Below are positions 12,760 through 40,241 of a stretch of DNA of 64,000 bases, in pieces. A program made the position numbers and the translations under genes. Origin of the DNA: an uncultured Prevotellaceae bacterium (lineage in GTDB: Bacteria; Bacteroidota; Bacteroidia; Bacteroidales; Bacteroidaceae). The DNA lies in contig ONSR01000004.1 in the NCBI GenBank assembly GCA_900320565.1, positions 9,647 through 73,646 on the forward strand, in the 5' to 3' direction. The notes below the pieces were generated by a model. That model did no database searches and was not told the origin of the DNA. It worked only from the letters and a program-made list of their open reading frames with translations. Position 1 is the stretch's first letter, and every line of letters begins with the position of its first letter.

Positions 12760-12876
12760 AACTTCCCCTGTCAAGTCGGATGCGACATCCTGCCGGAAGC
12801 GGTCATGAAATGTCGTTCCTTTACAAACAAAGGCAAAAAAATCGGCCCACATGATAGAAGTTACGGATATTTTTGC

Positions 12877-12884
12877 TAACTTTG
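12877..12884 (+). promoter_or_regulatory. -7 box TAacTTTG (rfbD operon)
   Basis: taactttg lies 27 nt upstream of the ATG at 12912. Confidence 0.55.
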
Positions 12885-12911
12885 TACACAGAATATAGTA
12901 TAAGAAAGGAA

Positions 12912-13883
12912 ATGAATATACTCGTTACAGGAGCGAACGGACAGTTGGGCAACGAGATGCGCATCGTGGCTAAGGACTCGGCGGACCATTACATCTTCAC
13001 CGACGTCACTCAGCAAGAAGGCGCAGAGACCACGTTCCTCGACATCACCGACCTCGACGCCATCCGCGCGATGGTCAAGGAGAACGACGTCCGCGCCATC
13101 GTAAACTGTGCCGCGTGGACTAACGTCGATGCAGCCGAGGCTCCCGAGAATCGTGCGCTCGTCGAGAAGCTCAATGCGACAGCCCCCGAGAACCTGGCTC
13201 GCGCCATGAAGGAAGTGGGCGGTTGGCTCGTGCAGATATCGACCGACTACGTGTTCGGCAAGGAGCCTTACAACACGCCTTGTCGCCCCGACCAGCAGGG
13301 CACACCGACCGGCGTCTATGGCGAAACGAAGAAGATGGGAGAGGAGCGAATCCAAAAAGTATTTAATGAAAAATTAAAAATTAAAAGTGAAAAATTAATA
13401 GCAAGCGAGGCAGAAGGTTCAATGGTCAATGGTCAATGGTCAATGGTCAATGGCGGCTACATCATCATCCGCACGGCCTGGCTCTACAGTGAATACGGCA
13501 AGAACTTCTGCAAGACGATGCTCAACCTCACGGCCACCAAGCCGCAGCTCAAGGTTGTCTTCGATCAATGCGGCACTCCGACGTATGCCCTCGACCTGGC
13601 ACGCGCGATACAAGTCATCCTCCAGAAGCCCGTGCAAGGCATCTACCACTTCTCGAACGAAGGCGTCTGCTCGTGGTACGACTTCACGCAGATGATTGCC
13701 CGCATCGCCGGACACAAGGACTGCGACATCCAGCCCTGCCTGTCTTCGGAATATCCAAGTCCCGTGAAGCGTCCCGCCTACTCCGTCCTCGACAAACGCA
13801 GCATCCGGGAAACCTTCGGCATCGAGGTTCCGTACTGGGTCGATTCACTCGAAAAATGCATTAAGAACATCATTGAAAATTGA
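12912..13883 (+). CDS. rfbD: dTDP-4-dehydrorhamnose reductase
   Basis: MNILVTGANGQLG start, YGETK, IIRTAWLYS. Carries a roughly 33-codon repeat insertion. Confidence 0.9.
   Translation: MNILVTGANGQLGNEMRIVAKDSADHYIFTDVTQQEGAETTFLDITDLDAIRAMVKENDVRAIVNCAAWTNVDAAEAPENRALVEKLNATAPENLARAMKEVGGWLVQISTDYVFGKEPYNTPCRPDQQGTPTGVYGETKKMGEERIQKVFNEKLKIKSEKLIASEAEGSMVNGQWSMVNGGYIIIRTAWLYSEYGKNFCKTMLNLTATKPQLKVVFDQCGTPTYALDLARAIQVILQKPVQGIYHFSNEGVCSWYDFTQMIARIAGHKDCDIQPCLSSEYPSPVKRPAYSVLDKRSIRETFGIEVPYWVDSLEKCIKNIIEN
13368..13453. repeat. mosaic element in rfbD: (aaaaatt)-type arm + spacer + (aatggtc)x4.7 arm
   Basis: gaaaaattaaaaattaaaagtgaaaaattaata ... aatggtcaatggtcaatggtcaatggtcaatgg. Confidence 0.9.
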
Positions 13884-13963
13884 AGATTGAACATTGAACA
13901 TTATTCCGACCCGAAGACTTAGGGCGCAGCCCAATGGTCAATGGTCAATGGTCAATGTTCAAT
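13872..13963. repeat. hairpin-type heptamer element across the rfbD stop and the rfbD-rfbC spacer
   Basis: Left arm attgaaa attgaag attgaac attgaac att, a 30-nt GC-rich spacer, right arm aatggtc x3 aatgttc aat. Confidence 0.9.
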
Positions 13964-13975
13964 AAAGAAAAACAT

Positions 13976-14536
13976 ATGGAAGTAATTAAGACCGCCATCG
14001 AAGGCGTACTTATCATAGAACCACGCATCTTCAGGGATGCACGCGGGTACTTCTTCGAATCATTCTCGCAAAGGGAGTTCGAAGAGAAAGTCGGCCCCAT
14101 CAACTTTGTACAAGATAACGAAAGCATGTCCTCTTATGGGGTGATGCGCGGACTGCACTTCCAGCGCCCACCCTACACGCAGAGCAAACTCGTTCGCTGC
14201 GTCAGGGGAGCCGTTCTGGACGTAGCCGTCGATATCCGCAAAGGGTCTCCGACCTACGGACAGCACGTCGCCGTCGAACTCACAGAAGAGAATCATCGTC
14301 AGTTCTTCATTTCGAAAGGCTTCGCCCATGGTTTTGCCGTACTGAGCGAGACTGCCGTCTTCCAGTACAAATGCGATGAGTTCTACCATCCCGAGGCAGA
14401 CGACGGTATCGCCATAACAGACCTAAGCCTCGGCATCGACTGGCGAATCCCCATGGAGAAGGCAATCCTGAGCGAAAAAGACACTAAGCATATTAACCTG
14501 AAGGACTTCGAAAGTCCGTTCACAGACCCTCTCTAA
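13976..14536 (+). CDS. rfbC: dTDP-4-dehydrorhamnose 3,5-epimerase
   Basis: FRDARGYFFESF, MRGLHFQ, KLVRCVRGAVLDVAVDIR. The track start at 13934 lies inside a heptamer array, so I trimmed it to MEVIKT. Confidence 0.9.
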   Translation: MEVIKTAIEGVLIIEPRIFRDARGYFFESFSQREFEEKVGPINFVQDNESMSSYGVMRGLHFQRPPYTQSKLVRCVRGAVLDVAVDIRKGSPTYGQHVAVELTEENHRQFFISKGFAHGFAVLSETAVFQYKCDEFYHPEADDGIAITDLSLGIDWRIPMEKAILSEKDTKHINLKDFESPFTDPL

Positions 14537-14555
14537 CTCCCCCTTAAAGGGGGAG
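14524..14555. repeat. left arm of the CCCCCTTAAAGGGGG palindromic element flanking the DUF559 gene
   Basis: agaccctctctaactcccccttaaagggggag is identical to 27911-27942. Confidence 0.9.
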
Positions 14556-14572
14556 AACACAGGCTGAAAACA

Positions 14573-14938
14573 ATGAAATGGCAAACGGCAGACACAATAG
14601 AATATGAACTTCTAAAAAGCCATTCAAAGGCAAAACGCGGCAATCAGACAGAAGCAGAGTCTGTTTTCTGGCAAATGGCGAAAGGCAGCGGACTAGGACA
14701 AAAGTGCAGAAGACAATACATTATCGGAGAGTATATCGTTGACTTCTTCTTTCGGCAATCAATGCTAATAGTGGAAATAGACGGAGGATACCACTTCACA
14801 GAAGAACAACAAAAGGAGGACATAACGAGACAAAACTGGTTGGAGCAAAAAGGATATAAAGTTCTGCGGTTCACCAACGAACAAGTCTTATATGACACAG
14901 ACAATATGATTAACGAATTAAAAAAGCATCTAATCTAA
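14573..14938 (+). CDS. DUF559 (Vsr-like endonuclease fold) protein
   Basis: YIVDFFF...LIVEIDGGYH...GYKVLRFTN pattern of DUF559. A/T-rich third codon positions, unlike the flanking rfb genes. Confidence 0.8.
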   Translation: MKWQTADTIEYELLKSHSKAKRGNQTEAESVFWQMAKGSGLGQKCRRQYIIGEYIVDFFFRQSMLIVEIDGGYHFTEEQQKEDITRQNWLEQKGYKVLRFTNEQVLYDTDNMINELKKHLI

Positions 14939-14939
14939 T

Positions 14940-16115
14940 ATGAGTAACAACAGTTCATCCCCCTTTAAGGGGGACAGAGGGGGTCTCAACATCGTCATAA
15001 CTGGTGGAGCCGGTTTCATCGGCAGTCACGTAGTACGCCTCTTTGTCAACAAGTACCCCGAATACAAGATCATCAACCTCGACAAGTTGACCTACGCAGG
15101 CAACCTCGCCAACCTCAAGGACATCGAGGACAAGCCCAACTACAAGTTCGTGAAGATGGACATCTGCGACTTCGACGCCTTCTACAAACTGATGCAGGAC
15201 GAGAAGATAGACGGCATCATCCACCTCGCAGCAGAGAGTCACGTGGACCGCAGCATCAAAGACCCCTTCACCTTTGCTCGCACGAATGTGATGGGAACAC
15301 TCTCCCTCCTGCAAGCTGCCAAGCTCTATTGGGAAAGCCTGCCAGAGCGGTACGAAGGCAAACGCTTCTATCACATCTCGACCGACGAGGTGTACGGCGC
15401 TCTGGAGATGACCAACCCGGAAGGCATAAAACCGCCTTTCACCACGACAGCCAGCAGTTCGGAGCATCATCTGGCATATGGCAAGGACTTCTTCTACGAG
15501 ACAACGAAGTACCAGCCACACAGTCCGTACTCCGCTTCGAAAGCCTCCAGCGACCACTTTGTCCGCGCTTTCCACGACACTTACGGCATGCCGACCATCG
15601 TCACGAACTGCTCCAACAACTACGGCCCCTATCAGTTCCCCGAGAAACTGATTCCTCTCTTCATCAACAACATACGCCATCGCAAGCCTCTTCCCGTTTA
15701 TGGTAAGGGCGAGAACGTGCGCGACTGGCTCTACGTCGAAGACCACGCTCGTGCCATCGACACGATCTTCCACAAGGGACAGATTGCCGAGACGTACAAC
15801 ATCGGCGGCTTCAACGAGTGGAAGAACATTGATATCATCAAGACTGTCATCAATACAGTTGACCGTTTGCTTGGCCGTCCAGAAGGAGCCGACATGGACC
15901 TCATCACATACGTCACAGACAGGCTTGGTCACGACGCACGCTACGCCATCGACTCCACCAAGCTGCAAAAGGAACTTGGATGGGAGCCGTCGCTCCAGTT
16001 CGAAGAGGGCATCGAAAAGACCGTCAAGTGGTACCTCGAGAACGAGGCTTGGATGGACAACATCACAAGCGGCGACTACGAGAAGTACTACGAGGAGATG
16101 TACAAGAATCGCTAA
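14940..16115 (+). CDS. rfbB: dTDP-glucose 4,6-dehydratase
   Basis: ITGGAGFIGSH, YSASKASSD and the long Bacteroidota-type form. The first roughly 16 codons are encoded by a repeat arm. Confidence 0.9.
   Translation: MSNNSSSPFKGDRGGLNIVITGGAGFIGSHVVRLFVNKYPEYKIINLDKLTYAGNLANLKDIEDKPNYKFVKMDICDFDAFYKLMQDEKIDGIIHLAAESHVDRSIKDPFTFARTNVMGTLSLLQAAKLYWESLPERYEGKRFYHISTDEVYGALEMTNPEGIKPPFTTTASSSEHHLAYGKDFFYETTKYQPHSPYSASKASSDHFVRAFHDTYGMPTIVTNCSNNYGPYQFPEKLIPLFINNIRHRKPLPVYGKGENVRDWLYVEDHARAIDTIFHKGQIAETYNIGGFNEWKNIDIIKTVINTVDRLLGRPEGADMDLITYVTDRLGHDARYAIDSTKLQKELGWEPSLQFEEGIEKTVKWYLENEAWMDNITSGDYEKYYEEMYKNR
14958..14986. repeat. right (inverted) arm of the element flanking the DUF559 gene
   Basis: tccccctttaagggggacagagggggtct is an imperfect reverse complement of the left arm. 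Confidence 0.85.
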
Positions 16116-25806: not shown

Positions 25807-26523
25807 TCATGCTCCAATATACGATAGGAAGCGGGCTGGGAAGTAGTTCATGATGAGCTCGTCGGGGAACTCTGTCTCCTGCAGCAACGGCCAGATGAAG
25901 CTGTAGTCGGCTATGGCGTAACTGATGTGGGCGTCGCTGCTCAGCACGACTGGCACTTCGTAACGCTTGCAAAGGCGCAGTATCTCGAGGTTGTTCCTGA
26001 GGGCCGTCTCCTTGTTTCGATTGGGATTCAGGCTGCTGTTGTTTATCTCGAGCAAGGTTTTCGACTCTTTTGCTGCCAGGACAATCGGCTCGAACAGGAG
26101 TTCTGCGGTGCCGTCGCCAGGATGCGAGATGATTTGCGTCCACGGATTACGGATAGCGTTTATCATGCCTTGGGTGTTCTCCTCAACGGTGCCGCCTTCC
26201 CAGCAGAGCAGATGAATGCCTGCGATACGGATATCGAGCATCTTGTAGTAATATTCATCGAGGTCGAGCGTGCCCTTTGTATCAAGAATGTTCAGCTCGG
26301 CTCCAAGCAGGAGACGCAGGTTTCCAAACCGTCGGGGCACCACATGCAGGTTGCGGAAATAGATGGGATTGCACGTTCCGGGAATGCCTGGAGCATGTTC
26401 CGTGATGCCAAGAATATCGAGGTTCTTTTGCTGAGCTGCTGCCACCATTTCCTGCAAGGAGCTGTAGGCGTGACCGCTCATTACGGTGTGGGTGTGGACG
26501 TCAAGTTTCAATTCATGTTTCAT
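25807..26523 (-). CDS. PHP-domain phosphatase (YcdX-like)
   Basis: LDVHTHTVMSGHAYS metal-binding start. ATGA overlap with the upstream gene. Confidence 0.75.
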   Translation of the reverse strand: MKHELKLDVHTHTVMSGHAYSSLQEMVAAAQQKNLDILGITEHAPGIPGTCNPIYFRNLHVVPRRFGNLRLLLGAELNILDTKGTLDLDEYYYKMLDIRIAGIHLLCWEGGTVEENTQGMINAIRNPWTQIISHPGDGTAELLFEPIVLAAKESKTLLEINNSSLNPNRNKETALRNNLEILRLCKRYEVPVVLSSDAHISYAIADYSFIWPLLQETEFPDELIMNYFPARFLSYIGA

Positions 26524-28184
26524 AATACACAATTCATAGTATCAGTGAAGGTTTTGCCTTCAAATGTAATAGCATAAGCGTGGAGCATCAGCCTTTCGCC
26601 AGGCTTGCCATAAAGTCTGTCGCCGAGTATCGGGTTGTTAAGTCCTTGTGGATGAGCGCAGTGAACGCGAAGCTGATGGGTGCGTCCGGTGATAGGACTG
26701 AGCTCGAGGAAAGCATGACCCTCCCTGTTTGCAAGGACTTTGTAATGTGTTTCGGCAGGCTTCCCATGCTCTCTATCCACCATCTGTCGAGGGCGGTCGT
26801 CGATATCGGGACGCAGAGGAAGGTTTATAGTTCCCTCTTGTCCGACAGGCATTTCCCTTTCGAGCAAGGCATGATAGACCTTGTGGATCTGTCGATGCAG
26901 GAAGAGGTCTTGCAACTTGTGGTACTTCTCTTCGGTCAACGCGACAAGCATCAAGCCACTTGTATCCATGTCGAGTCGATGCACAATGAGGGGGCCTTTT
27001 ACCGATGAAATGGCGCTTTTTATTGCATCTTGCACGTTTGGAAGGCCGTCCTTGCCTGGCACGGAAAGCATCCCTGCAGGCTTACTCACCACAGCCAACT
27101 CGCCATTATTATATATAATGTGTAGCTGAGCAAGCAGCTTCTCTTGGTCTGCAAGCAAAGGATTGGGTTCTACATCGAGCCCTTCGAGCATGTGCGTGAG
27201 GATGGGAAGGCATTTGCTTCGGCAAGCAGGATAGTAATGTCCGTCGAGTCTGACCTCATTTGTTGGCGAAGCTCCCACCCAGAACTCAGCCATACAAAGT
27301 GGTTGCAGACCTTCTTTATAAGCCGCTTGGAGCAATCGTGGTGCGCAACACTCCCCAGCCCCAGATGGTGGAATGGCTGGAGAGAAGAGGTTCAGCAACG
27401 ACTTCTCCTCGCCTCGTGCATTGAGGAAGGTGAACTGGCGGAACAACCATTGCTGCAAGGCGATGCTGCGCTCATGCCTTTCTTGCTGCAGCTGGTCTAT
27501 CTCTGCTTGTTGTTCTCGCAGATGGGCTTCATCATCAAACACACGTTGTTCCCAAGCTTGCCTCAGTCTGCGATACTCTGCCCTCTGGTGCTGGCTCTCT
27601 TTAATAAGGTTTTGTTTATTTTTTCCCAATTCATCGACAGAAATCGACTCTCGCTGAGCATCACGCATGGCCTTGCTTTGTCGCATAAACTCCCTGTAGG
27701 CTGCAAGTTCTTCGTCCATCTTCGCTCGCAAAGGGCTCGGGCTTAATGAACTCTCGAGATGTGCAATCCGACGATTGATGTCGCTGATGGCAGCCTCTTC
27801 CTCCTGGAAATAACAGCCCGGAGACATGAGGTCGAAGACTGGCGGAACGAAGTATTCGTGCTGGGTTTTGCCGTCAAGTGTGCCGGAGAAGGCAGCGAGA
27901 AACGAAAGCGAGACCCTCTCTAACTCCCCCTTAAAGGGGGAGGACACAGAATAAGAAGTCTCCCCTTTAAGGGGAGATTTAGAGGGGTCTACTATGAGTA
28001 CGCCGAGCATCTTTCCCTTTTGCAACTCGTCGTGCCACTCCTTTCGCTGACTGATATAGTGCTGCACCTCGTTTGCAGCGGCAACGCAGAGTGGGTGTGG
28101 TTCGTAGCAGAAGGGAAAGGTAAACTGCTTCGGAGCGTTTGTCGTCAGGACGCGAGGCGGTAAGGGATGTATAGTTACAGCCAT
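26520..28184 (-). CDS. RluA-family pseudouridine synthase, long form
   Basis: HRLDMDTSGLMLVA catalytic motif and HQLRVHCAH. Carries an 80-bp palindromic insertion. Confidence 0.8.
   Translation of the reverse strand: MAVTIHPLPPRVLTTNAPKQFTFPFCYEPHPLCVAAANEVQHYISQRKEWHDELQKGKMLGVLIVDPSKSPLKGETSYSVSSPFKGELERVSLSFLAAFSGTLDGKTQHEYFVPPVFDLMSPGCYFQEEEAAISDINRRIAHLESSLSPSPLRAKMDEELAAYREFMRQSKAMRDAQRESISVDELGKNKQNLIKESQHQRAEYRRLRQAWEQRVFDDEAHLREQQAEIDQLQQERHERSIALQQWLFRQFTFLNARGEEKSLLNLFSPAIPPSGAGECCAPRLLQAAYKEGLQPLCMAEFWVGASPTNEVRLDGHYYPACRSKCLPILTHMLEGLDVEPNPLLADQEKLLAQLHIIYNNGELAVVSKPAGMLSVPGKDGLPNVQDAIKSAISSVKGPLIVHRLDMDTSGLMLVALTEEKYHKLQDLFLHRQIHKVYHALLEREMPVGQEGTINLPLRPDIDDRPRQMVDREHGKPAETHYKVLANREGHAFLELSPITGRTHQLRVHCAHPQGLNNPILGDRLYGKPGERLMLHAYAITFEGKTFTDTMNCVL
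27911..27990. repeat. 80-bp palindromic element (CCCCCTTAAAGGGGG type) inside the rluA-family gene
   Basis: agaccctctctaactcccccttaaaggggga, a 17-nt loop, then tctcccctttaaggggagatttagaggggtct. Confidence 0.9.
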
Positions 28185-28732
28185 AGCACACCCTCCGGTC
28201 CCATATTAAAGAGCAAATCTACGATGCTGAGGTCGGGCAAGAACCCGTGTCGCGAAGCAAACATCTGGTAGTAGGGAGAATACTCTCTCCTGCCCTCCGT
28301 TAAAGGGGGAGCGTCCTCGAAAGCAATGGTTCGCGTAACGGGCTTCTCAATATCGAGCAGCGAGGCAACCAACATCATCAGTTCCTCGTTGAAATCGGCC
28401 ATGAAATCCCACTTCTTTTCGTAAAAAGGGGCGAATTCATCGGCATAATATTCAAAGAAAGGTGACTGCCTGTAGCTGCTCTCGAGGGCAACCCAATGCT
28501 GATGCCTCCAGTTGCCGTGATCGCTGATTCGCACGTCGCGCATCAAAGTCTTGCCTTCCATCTTCACAACAGGAACAGTGAGGGCAAGCGCTCCATTCGG
28601 GCTGTCTATCCAACAACGATTGCGAAGGGTTTGCTTCACGAAGTGGTCACAAACCTCGAGCCGCACTTCATCACTGCGATAGTAAGCGCTATAGTGAGAA
28701 ACAGGAGCGAGATAACAGCAAGGCAGAACCAT
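28175..28732 (-). CDS. WbqC family protein
   Basis: MVLPCCYLAPVSHYSAYY...HWVALESSYRQSPFFEYY pattern. Track ORF trimmed because it ran over lepB. Confidence 0.7.
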   Translation of the reverse strand: MVLPCCYLAPVSHYSAYYRSDEVRLEVCDHFVKQTLRNRCWIDSPNGALALTVPVVKMEGKTLMRDVRISDHGNWRHQHWVALESSYRQSPFFEYYADEFAPFYEKKWDFMADFNEELMMLVASLLDIEKPVTRTIAFEDAPPLTEGRREYSPYYQMFASRHGFLPDLSIVDLLFNMGPEGVLWL

Positions 28733-28790
28733 TGAACATTGACAATTGAAACATTGACCGTTTCTCCCCCTAAAGGGGGTTAGGGGGTCT
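28729..28790. repeat. composite element: heptamer arm + palindromic module, lepB-wbqC spacer
   Basis: ccattgaac attgaca attgaaa cattgacc, then tctccccctaaagggggttagggggtct. Confidence 0.8.
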
Positions 28791-38900: not shown

Positions 38901-40241
38901 ATGGACACGAAACACATTCAAATACGCGACTACGACTACGCTTTGCCTGAAGACCGCATAGCGAAGTTCCCCTTGCCCGAGCGAGACAGCAGCAAATTGC
39001 TTGTCTATGAAGGTGGGAAGATTAGCGAGACTCAGTTCCGTTCCCTGCCTTCGTTGTTGCCCGAGGGCAGTTTGATGGTCTTCAACAATACGCGCGTCAT
39101 TCAGGCGAGACTGCATTTCAGGAAGAAGCCTCCCCAGCCCCCTTTAGGGGGAGACCTTCGTGCAGAGGAAATCGCAAATAGCAAATCGTCAAATAGTCAA
39201 TGCCTTGGGGCCCTCATCGAAATATTCCTTCTGGAGCCGGCCAACCCTGTGGAGTATCAGGAGAACTTCGCCAGAAAGGGAAGTTGCTCGTGGTATTGCC
39301 TCGTGGGCAACTCGAAGAAGTGGAAGGAAGGAGCCTTGACAAGGGAATTCAAAATTCAAAATTCAAAATTCAAACTCACGGCGGAGCGCATTGGAACACA
39401 TGGCACGAGCCAGGAAATCAGGTTCAATTGGGACGCTAACCTGACTTTCGCCGAAGTTATCGATACCGTCGGAGAACTTCCCATCCCGCCATATCTCAAC
39501 AGGAAGACTGAGGAGAGCGACAAGACAACCTACCAAACGGTCTATTCCAAGATAAAGGGTTCGGTAGCGGCTCCTACTGCAGGACTGCATTTCACGAAGC
39601 GCGTTCTGGCTGACATCGATGCGAAAGGCATCGAGCGAGAAGAAGTGACGCTTCATGTGGGCGCCGGAACATTCCGACCCGTCAAGAGTGAAGACATCGG
39701 CGGGCACGATATGCACACCGAACACATTGCCGTCCATCGCCACACCATCGAGCGAATCTTGGCTCATAATGGCGAGGCAATTGCCGTAGGAACCACCAGC
39801 GTCCGCACCCTCGAAAGCCTGTATTATATGGGAGTGCTGGCATGGCAAATGAAGAATGAAGAATTAAGAATGAAGAATGACGGGCGGGACGAAATCGTAA
39901 ATTGTAAATTGTCAAATTGTCAATCACTTCACGTTCCCCAGTGGATGCCATATGAGTACGACAACTCGCTCTCGACAATAGAGGCTCTCACTGCCCTACT
40001 CCGGTACATGGACGAGCGAGGCGAGGAGGTGATCCACTCCAGCACACAAATCATTATTGCCCCTGGCTACAAGTATCACATCGTACGTCGCATGATAACC
40101 AACTTCCACCAGCCGCAGAGCACACTGCTGCTGCTCGTCAGCGCCTTTATTGGTGATGCTTGGCACGACGTCTATGACTACGCCCTCAGCCACGACTTCC
40201 GCTTCCTCAGCTATGGTGACAGCTCGATGCTCGTGCCCTAG
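38901..40241 (+). CDS. queA: S-adenosylmethionine:tRNA ribosyltransferase-isomerase
   Basis: DYDYALPEDRIA, ELPIPPYL, VAAPTAGLHFT, VGTTSVRTLES, NFHQPQSTLLLLVSAF. At 446 aa it is lengthened by repeat insertions. Confidence 0.9.
   Translation: MDTKHIQIRDYDYALPEDRIAKFPLPERDSSKLLVYEGGKISETQFRSLPSLLPEGSLMVFNNTRVIQARLHFRKKPPQPPLGGDLRAEEIANSKSSNSQCLGALIEIFLLEPANPVEYQENFARKGSCSWYCLVGNSKKWKEGALTREFKIQNSKFKLTAERIGTHGTSQEIRFNWDANLTFAEVIDTVGELPIPPYLNRKTEESDKTTYQTVYSKIKGSVAAPTAGLHFTKRVLADIDAKGIEREEVTLHVGAGTFRPVKSEDIGGHDMHTEHIAVHRHTIERILAHNGEAIAVGTTSVRTLESLYYMGVLAWQMKNEELRMKNDGRDEIVNCKLSNCQSLHVPQWMPYEYDNSLSTIEALTALLRYMDERGEEVIHSSTQIIIAPGYKYHIVRRMITNFHQPQSTLLLLVSAFIGDAWHDVYDYALSHDFRFLSYGDSSMLVP
39135..39204. 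repeat. queA insertion 1: palindromic module + (aaatcgc/aaatagc)n arm
   Basis: cagccccctttagggggagacc ... aaatcgc aaatagc aaatcgt caaatag tcaatg. Confidence 0.85.
39346..39374. repeat. queA insertion 2: (aattcaa)x4
   Basis: aattcaa aattcaa aattcaa aattcaa a, encoding FKIQNSKFK. Confidence 0.85.
39849..39925. repeat. queA insertion 3: (gaatgaa)n arm + cgggcgggacg spacer + (aaattgt)n arm
   Basis: atgaagaatgaagaattaagaatgaagaatga cgggcgggacg aaatcgtaaattgtaaattgtcaaattgtcaatc. Confidence 0.9.

Follow-up and report, generated by a model that had tools for sequence, protein, structure and literature searches.

A segment of 80 bases, at positions 27911-27990 of a 64,000-nucleotide stretch of DNA from an uncultured Prevotellaceae bacterium, a Prevotella-like organism of rumen or gut (GenBank assembly GCA_900320565.1, contig ONSR01000004.1, positions 9,647 to 73,646 of the forward strand; hereafter the window), lies inside the open reading frame of a gene for an RluA-family pseudouridine synthase. 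In our assessment this element is probably a dispersed, triplex-type repeat of a selfish kind, inserted in frame in a protein loop where repeats succeed one another. The segment is one copy of a gene-less dispersed repeat, with two inverted arms of ~31 nucleotides (nt) around a 17-nt spacer. It was inserted in frame, at what is modelled as the turn of a beta-hairpin in the protein's N-terminal domain, and adds 26 residues predicted to be disordered. The extra loop is probably harmless, and the element would behave as selfish DNA rather than as part of the enzyme, because the enzyme does without it in orthologues and it is left to decay in some lineages. The loop itself would be a site of repeated landing or replacement, occupied in succession by triplex pairs of different arm types, single arms and arrays of 7-base repeats, with the resident repeat probably acting as target or recombination substrate for the next one. 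The arms may be kept uniform across copies and species by conversion between copies or by selection for recognition by a partner enzyme, for which small DUF559 (Vsr-like) nucleases are candidates.

Structure of the 80-bp element

The coordinates, letters and three-part layout that a preliminary description of the window had given for the segment are exactly those read from the sequence, with arms of 31 nt and 32 nt, in that order, on either side of a 17-nt spacer. Arm A (27911..27941, plus strand; AGACCCTCTCTAA-CTCCCCC-TTAAA-GGGGGA) runs from a pyrimidine third block, CCCTCTC, through a 3-nt linker, a pyrimidine stem, CTCCCCC, and a 5-nt loop to a purine stem; on the strand of the gene, the minus strand, it is the 3' arm and codes for SSPFKGELERV. 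It is followed by the spacer (27942..27958, plus strand; GGACACAGAATAAGAAG), which the gene strand reads as part of GETSYSVSS, and by arm B (27959..27990, plus strand; TCTCCCC-TTTAA-GGGGAGA-TTT-AGAGGGG-TCT), the 5' arm on the gene strand, which codes for DPSKSPLKGE. The block AGAGGGG of arm B is an exact mirror of its stem GGGGAGA, and the third block of arm A, CCCTCTC, departs from the mirror CCCCCTC by one mismatch. The earlier wording of a palindrome with perfect arms has to be narrowed, as perfect complementarity between the arms is limited to a 13-nt core (CCCCTTAAAGGGG / CCCCTTTAAGGGG) and their alignment matches in 29 of 33 columns, with one mismatch and three one-base insertions or deletions; A and B are two distinct arm types, not one sequence plus its complement. 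The termini of the element are inverted repeats (AGACC...GGTCT), the criterion used for miniature inverted-repeat transposable elements, or MITEs.

The stability of the fold is far beyond chance. The gene-strand RNA of the element region folds at -49.1 kcal/mol, compared with -29.6 +/- 3.9 kcal/mol for shuffled sequences (z = -5.05; none of 200 shuffles equalled it), and the DNA fold of the element gave z = -5.6; these ViennaRNA energies model Watson-Crick pairs only. With both strands counted and up to one mismatch allowed, the window has 10 occurrences of the core CCCCTTWAAGGGG, where 0.02 would be expected. The element is a real, non-random double hairpin. Arm B, with 7-nt blocks and loops of 5 and 3 nt, falls within the size range that the ITxF criteria of Holder et al. 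2015 set for intrastrand triplex motifs (three blocks in succession, stems of 6-15 nt, loops of 1-6 nt); the same criteria ask for a third block that mirrors the adjacent block of like strand, for a parallel or antiparallel third strand. An Rfam search with the element returned no family at E <= 1.

Position in the host protein

The host gene (26520-28184, minus strand; assigned from its open reading frame, Pfam and Foldseek) encodes an RluA-family protein of 554 residues. PseudoU_synth_2 (PF00849) covers residues 363-511 (E = 1e-33), and Foldseek pairs the C-terminal half with the RluA structure 2i82 (39-40% identity); the catalytic HRLD motif is present. The N-terminal domain of ~350 residues had neither a Pfam match nor a fold match in the PDB. 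Within these ~350 residues H30, C33, C279, C280, C297, C321 and C325 are invariant and a long helical hairpin spans about residues 125-250; the domain fused to RluA may be a metal-binding one.

The minus-strand translation ...DPSKSPLKGETSYSVSSPFKGELERVS... falls within this 554-residue reading frame, as the preliminary description had it. By six-frame translation 78 bases of the element (27912..27989, minus strand) make up codons D66-V91, with the 26-residue peptide DPSKSPLKGETSYSVSSPFKGELERV, and the one stop-free frame of the six is the frame used by the gene. The protein is 554 residues long, against 528 in the short-loop orthologue P0023, a difference of 26 codons. Since the 66 residues upstream of the insert are conserved, many of them at invariant positions, the element lies within the protein and not ahead of its start. 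A model made with AlphaFold2 from an alignment of 46 sequences (mean predicted local distance difference test score, pLDDT, 77.9) places the insert between strands 58-66 and 94-99, with pLDDT < 50 at residues 72-90, so that in the model the insert forms the disordered tip of a beta-hairpin in the N-terminal domain, at a fold-compatible surface position. We infer that the element is translated, because the upstream 66 residues are conserved, only the used frame is open, and intragenic length differences between genomes are multiples of three (see below), and that it is tolerated as a disordered loop. Tryptic peptides predicted across the junctions of the insert include ...GVLIVDPSK, GETSYSVSSPFK and VSLSFLAAFSGTLDGK. 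Intein-like or RNA-level removal of the insert was considered and rejected on size, the insert having 26 residues and no splicing motifs.

Loop states among orthologues

Of 120 orthologues retrieved (66-100% identity), 118 had a loop whose limits could be set, with the conserved block GKMxGVL(V/I)V on one side and FLAAFSG on the other. Short loops of 2-8 residues (e.g. VVEGG or VVAKGSERG) were present in 57 of the 118, long inserts of the triplex-pair type in 28, inserts of 7-base repeats (e.g. KMVNGKSSMVNGLG) in 16, and inserts of intermediate length, several of which are single arms, in 17. A non-palindromic segment conserved in the orthologues, which the preliminary description had named as the outcome contrary to an insertion, was not found. 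Because the orthologous loops are empty or otherwise filled and the segment belongs to a dispersed family, the segment is an insertion carried in frame within a conserved gene. It could be argued instead that the gene had the segment from the beginning and that orthologues without it have lost it, as the segment and its locus-specific spacer are common to five species with flanks 70-85% identical. We regard this as very improbable, given that the segment belongs to a dispersed family whose copies at other places are 86-93% identical to it, that most loops are short, with short ones in every major clade, and that an old loop evolving neutrally would not have arms as well conserved as these. An artefact of assembly or binning is the least credible of the explanations we considered: nothing specific points to it beyond the genome being a bin of 122 contigs, while identical or near-identical 554-residue proteins are found on several independent contigs and assemblies (P0001-P0007), the same insert is present in the genomes G156 and G134, and the element is shorter than a sequencing read.

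On a tree of the 118 orthologues, built with the loop columns excluded and scored for four loop states, the loop underwent at least 36 changes of state, with at least 13 changes involving the triplex-pair state (at least 11 when only well-supported branches are counted) and at least 10 involving the 7-base-array state. Among species of one genus, the A/B element occupies the loop in the genome of the window (G000) and in G156 and G134, decaying copies are seen in G059 and G008, and the loop of G047 holds a C-A element; two further pair types occur at loci L003/L010 and L004, single arms at L013, L017-L019, L021, L023 and L024, and several 7-base arrays at others. Judged from this tree, the RluA loop is a turnover hot spot. 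In the pair types at L003/L010, L004 and L005/L006/L009 the loop has the same total length, 93 nt, and ends in the same Leu-Ser codons, which hints that arms may have been converted in place at this loop rather than freshly inserted.

Distribution and architecture of the repeat family

The genome G000 measures 2.63 Mb in 122 contigs, with a GC content of 50.8%, and is 89% complete. Its arms number 109-135 according to the criterion used, and 26 elements are paired. The genome-wide search with the 32-mer that the preliminary description had suggested, run with blastn-short, found it at 100% identity in eight places, the copy at 27911-27941 included, and further copies at 90-97%. There are several arm types, and since whole combinations of pair plus spacer recur in G000 (A-B, C-A, A-E and B-E), complete elements have multiplied, not arms alone. 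In the five sister genomes searched there were at least 19-41 matches per genome in four and 5 in the fifth, and within the family arms were detected in 7 of the 35 genera sampled.

All arms are built alike: a pyrimidine block is followed, across a linker of 2-4 nt, by a pyrimidine stem, which a loop of 3-6 nt joins to the complementary purine stem, and the first block mirrors the stem. Across 334 windows with a seven-base pyrimidine hairpin, the upstream 7-mer mirrored the stem, with at most one mismatch, in 113; for the 262 windows with an asymmetric stem there were 93 mirror matches, as against 23 for a direct-copy control. The mirror relation covaries across at least six stems (CTCCCCC, TCTCCCC, CCTCCCC, CCCTCCC, CTCTCCC and CCTCTCCC). 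By sequence, then, the arms have an intrastrand-triplex-motif architecture of the BoxC/PIT/TM_ECO kind (Holder et al. 2015, PMC4666352, citing Hoyne et al. of the Maher laboratory).

Pairs are found mostly in coding sequence, 24 of the 26 in G000 lying in frames that are open for at least 40 codons on both sides, compared with 74.6% of random 80-nt windows (binomial p ~0.02); all nine copies taken from five other genomes of the genus are likewise in open frames. Typically two of the six frames of a pair are open in G000, and the peptide readings recur: xTLSNSPLKGE...VSPLRGDLEGS, and more rarely DPSKSPLKGE...SSPFKGELERV, the one used at the RluA site. A 149-nt variant at C109:6229-6377 of G000 has a long spacer that is fully translated (…SPLKEEDKVASEPVIATDTASIAISPSDEDSTKEVSPLRGDLEGS), and its orthologue in G156 is diverged and longer.

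No direct repeat of 2-5 nt, as target-site duplication would leave, was present outside the ends of any of 19 copies. A comparison of filled and empty states at site C62 shows a 3-nt TTC repeat that could equally be microhomology of a deletion, and the sequence next to element ends has a weak A/T preference and no other target motif. A search of G000 (89% complete) for a Y1/RAYT transposase (PF01797) gave no match, with positive controls detected.

Gain, loss and replacement at orthologous sites

The joined flanks of the 26 pair loci were searched in the nearest genome, G119, where flanks are mostly 90-98% identical, and 19 sites could be compared. The same element is present in G119 at three of them (C41, C82 and C113) and a different triplex pair at one (C24); a 7-base array or other short-period repeat takes the same position at eight (RluA, C46, C56, C68a, C68b, C90, C44 and C38), unrelated short, non-repeat sequence at four (C26, C35, C71 and C88), and three sites are empty or nearly so. 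All 15 intragenic length differences between G000 and G119 are multiples of three, whereas the two intergenic ones (43 and 67 nt) are not, an internal control that the inserts are read through.

With G156 as outgroup (flanks ~85% identical; its outgroup status comes from flank identity only), changes can be assigned to branches. Five sites lost their pair on the G119 branch: it gave way to a heptamer array at RluA, C46 and C68a and to short sequence of an unrelated kind at C26, and at C62 it went with a clean deletion of 105 nt between TTC repeats; at C46 the first ~12 bases of the old arm are retained in G119 (AAAGACCCC..TCT, with one extra C). On the G000 branch an array gave way to a pair at C56 and C90, where G119 and G156 share the same array, and there is a new 111-nt insertion at C102. 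As polarised by this outgroup, triplex pairs and 7-base arrays replace each other in both directions at the same codons. At C26:9945 and C62:43588 of G000, the G156 orthologues (L089/L098 and L080/L100) are longer by 18-21 nt, through a partial duplication at one arm's outer end (AGACCCTCTCTAACTCCA AGACCC..., AGACCCTCC AGACCCTACC...).

Such exchanges raise the possibility that pairs and 7-base arrays are alternative cargoes of a single site-directed cut-and-replace system that recognises structured repeats resident in coding loops, which would make the loop a true homing or replacement site and not just a tolerant one. Both directions of change occur at identical codon positions within ~2-10% flank divergence, a remnant of the old arm stands at C46 in G119, different pair types in the RluA loop have the 93-nt total length and the final Leu-Ser codons in common, there are composite elements in which a single arm is joined to a 7-base array, and DUF559 genes lie between arms. 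We nevertheless think such a system unlikely, as no enzyme activity or cut site is known for it, tolerant loops together with a high rate of palindrome insertion and deletion could mimic targeting, unrelated non-repeat sequence is found at C26, C35, C71 and C88, and the direction of change is inferred from three genomes only.

Divergence of arms and flanks

At the RluA locus the flanks of G000 and G156 are 79% and 78% identical, with third codon positions at 65% and 62%, while the loop region is identical at 91 of 93 positions, including all 31 third positions and all 60 positions of the two arms. Against G134, the flanks are 70% identical (third positions 38%) and the loop region matches at 85 of 93; the contrast of loop and flank is significant in this comparison (Fisher p = 3e-6; third positions p = 1.5e-9). 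The spacer variant ACTTCTTATYCT... is common to five RluA-site copies (G000 and four other species), with other spacers elsewhere in those genomes, so that these copies descend from one insertion or from one source variant. Conservation in excess of the flanks is seen at other sites too, where identities of G000 and G156 are 84/84 in the element and 84% in the flanks for C46, 78/83 and 88% for C82, and 71/76 and 78% for C68a.

Two observations weigh against the account given above. The copies shared with the nearest relative, G119 (C41, C82 and C113), diverge about as fast as their flanks, so that the strong conservation relative to G156 and G134 is not uniform and has no single explanation; and substitutions in G134, G059 and G008 break stem pairs and are uncompensated, which argues against selection for a hairpin at the RluA locus. 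Because of these, we read the conservation of the arms as a family-level effect and not as host selection for the RluA hairpin. Arm uniformity could stem from conversion of one arm by another, from lateral spread, or from selection of arms that a partner recognises. Conversion between the copies of one genome was rejected as a full explanation of the conservation, because several species have the locus-specific spacer in common, which argues against conversion of whole elements; conversion restricted to the arms may have taken place.

The same comparisons bear on the proposal that the host keeps the element as a nucleic-acid structure, whether a hairpin acting in mRNA stability or in ribosome pausing between folding units or a DNA hairpin or triplex in the control of replication or recombination. 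The hairpin is very stable, and the arms are conserved far beyond the flanking coding sequence, third codon positions included, as such a use would have it. Yet the loop is short in 57 of 118 orthologues, and in others its place is taken by inserts of unrelated structure, in the nearest relative by a 7-base array; the stem-breaking changes are uncompensated, some two dozen genes without any functional relation carry the element, and no Rfam family matches, so that we hold out little prospect for a host use.

Arms elsewhere in the window

A DUF559 cassette lies at 14524..14986 on the plus strand, between rfbC and rfbB, with the gene at 14573-14938, an A-type arm at 14524-14555 and an inverted arm at 14959-14986. 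Its left arm gives the stop codon of rfbC (..ACAGACCCTCTCTAA); the start of the rfbB open reading frame is a little way within the cassette, so that the frame continues across the right arm (MSNNSSSPFKGDRGGL), which gives the first codons of rfbB. A second DUF559 gene, at C91:43677-44161 of G000, is 47.5% identical to that of the window and also stands between inverted arms, which are of another type (CCCTCCC stem, CACAG loop), so that the arm type differs with the nuclease. Both DUF559 genes of G000 (2/2) are bracketed in this way, and by this arrangement DUF559 may be a partner of the arms, the sole candidate seen.

The peptides that had been pointed out as related to the element do exist: SSPFKGD at the N-terminus of RfbB, QPPLGGD in QueA and PPLTEG in the WbqC-like gene. 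QPPLGGD is the translation of a single arm in queA (39132..39151, plus strand; CCCCAG-CCCCC-TTTA-GGGGG). The supposed copy in the WbqC-like gene holds in part: there is a degenerate arm-like stretch at 28282..28311 (plus strand), 77% like arm A, but it takes the place of an equally long variable segment in the orthologues, with no net change in length, and is no net insertion. The leader of the wbqC-like gene contains a short-type single arm (28766..28790, minus strand; AGACCCCCTAA-CCCCC-TTTAG-GGGGG) beside 7-base repeats at 28730-28760. At the orthologous loci L001 and L003 the N-terminus of WbqC starts instead with a translated triplex pair (MAAPLQLPRGGDSIRQVPPCGDLEGA..., MNTLSHSFVKGEDSGSQVHAREAEG...), and the site looks like a second hot spot adjoining the RluA loop. 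The rfbD gene (12873-14000 region) has an in-frame insert rich in MVNGQWS (ATGGTCA 7-base repeats), and the longest rfbC open reading frame also starts with MVNGQWSMFNK.

Discussion

To the two observations on divergence, several further points have to be added on the same side. The excess of pairs in open frames is modest, and the family is undepleted in genes rather than strongly targeted there. The argument for mobility is one of distribution alone, because target-site duplication was seen in 0 of 19 copies and there is no recognised transposase. DUF559 may be a passenger, with two genes against more than 100 arms. A small number of insert-tolerant loops, together with the intrinsic instability of palindromes, is the strongest alternative explanation of the hot-spot pattern. 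In addition, all genomes compared are metagenome bins, in which heterogeneity of the population is hidden, though assembly across 80-bp repeats is normally sound.

Among known systems the closest likeness is to the BoxC/PIT/TM_ECO motifs, which have the same order of a C-rich stem, a 3-6-nt loop, a G-rich stem, a 3-nt loop and a second G-rich block mirroring the first, exist in many near-identical copies per genome, some as inverted pairs, are patchy among related genomes, and are linked to local rearrangement with no transposase found. The present family differs in its sequences and in its stems of 5-9 nt (7 nt in the RluA copy). TM_ECO is reported to be intergenic without exception in E. coli K-12 and unlinked to any mobility gene (Holder et al. 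2015, PMC4666352), whereas 24 of 26 pairs here are within open reading frames, in frame, and the RluA copy is inside a coding sequence. The element does not fit the TM_ECO consensus (CCCTCNCCC N3-6 GGGNGAGGG N3 GGGNGAGGG), for which G000 has one exact match, at C39:6910 (CCCTCGCCCTAAAGGGAGAGGGTTAGGGAGAGGG), and a BLAST search with the 80-mer against 5,426 complete E. coli genomes gave no match.

The in-frame position of the element recalls the Rickettsia palindromic elements, described as in-frame palindromic repeats in unrelated housekeeping genes (Ogata et al. 2000, summarised in PMC10969869). According to that summary they are translated as an extra peptide at fold-compatible positions, with a peptide characteristic of the family, but are ~150 bp long, not of the triplex-motif type, and belong to an obligate intracellular alphaproteobacterium. 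Membership of the element in that family is implausible in view of its 80 bp against ~150 bp and the different host, and we found no report, for the Rickettsia elements, of one repeat class replacing another at the same codons. With MITEs and REP/REPIN-RAYT the family shares short, gene-less repeats with inverted hairpin ends, of which longer relatives carry a gene (here DUF559); it is unlike MITEs in showing target-site duplication in none of 19 copies and unlike REP/REPIN-RAYT in that G000 has no Y1/RAYT gene, DUF559 has a Vsr-like nuclease fold and is not a known transposase, and, unlike those of REP, BoxC and most MITEs, the copies are mainly inside genes. In-frame fusions within open reading frames are also known, on occasion, from the small mobile sequences of enterobacteria, ERIC among them (Delihas 2007/2008, PMC2229807), families in which intragenic copies are rare; here the intragenic position is the rule and sites turn over.

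In the literature we found no paper on in-frame triplex-motif repeats, or on their exchange with 7-base arrays, in Bacteroidales, and nothing relevant on in-frame repeats in Prevotella or Bacteroidetes. New here are the structural placement, the conservation of arms relative to flanks, and the polarised three-genome evidence for replacement in two directions. To our knowledge, neither the origin nor the function of triplex-motif (BoxC/PIT) repeats has come to light in some thirty years, and published descriptions place them between genes. The intragenic location offers a natural read-out, as the frame must stay open, and closely related genomes allow single events of gain, loss and replacement to be ordered. 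A more speculative step, to which we give only a minor chance, is a frame-preserving swap system, possibly driven by the arm-flanked DUF559 nucleases, that would amount to a novel behaviour of mobile DNA, a 'loop homing' by which surface loops of housekeeping proteins in Bacteroidales are continuously rewritten. If replacement is driven by an enzyme, a testable substrate and a candidate partner, DUF559, have been identified; if it is not, the family would still be a clear Bacteroidales counterpart of the Rickettsia palindromic elements. Rewriting of loops, if true, matters for gene calling, orthologue alignment and strain typing based on these genes, and replacement of this kind would show that abundant gut and rumen bacteria tolerate a constant rewriting of protein loops.

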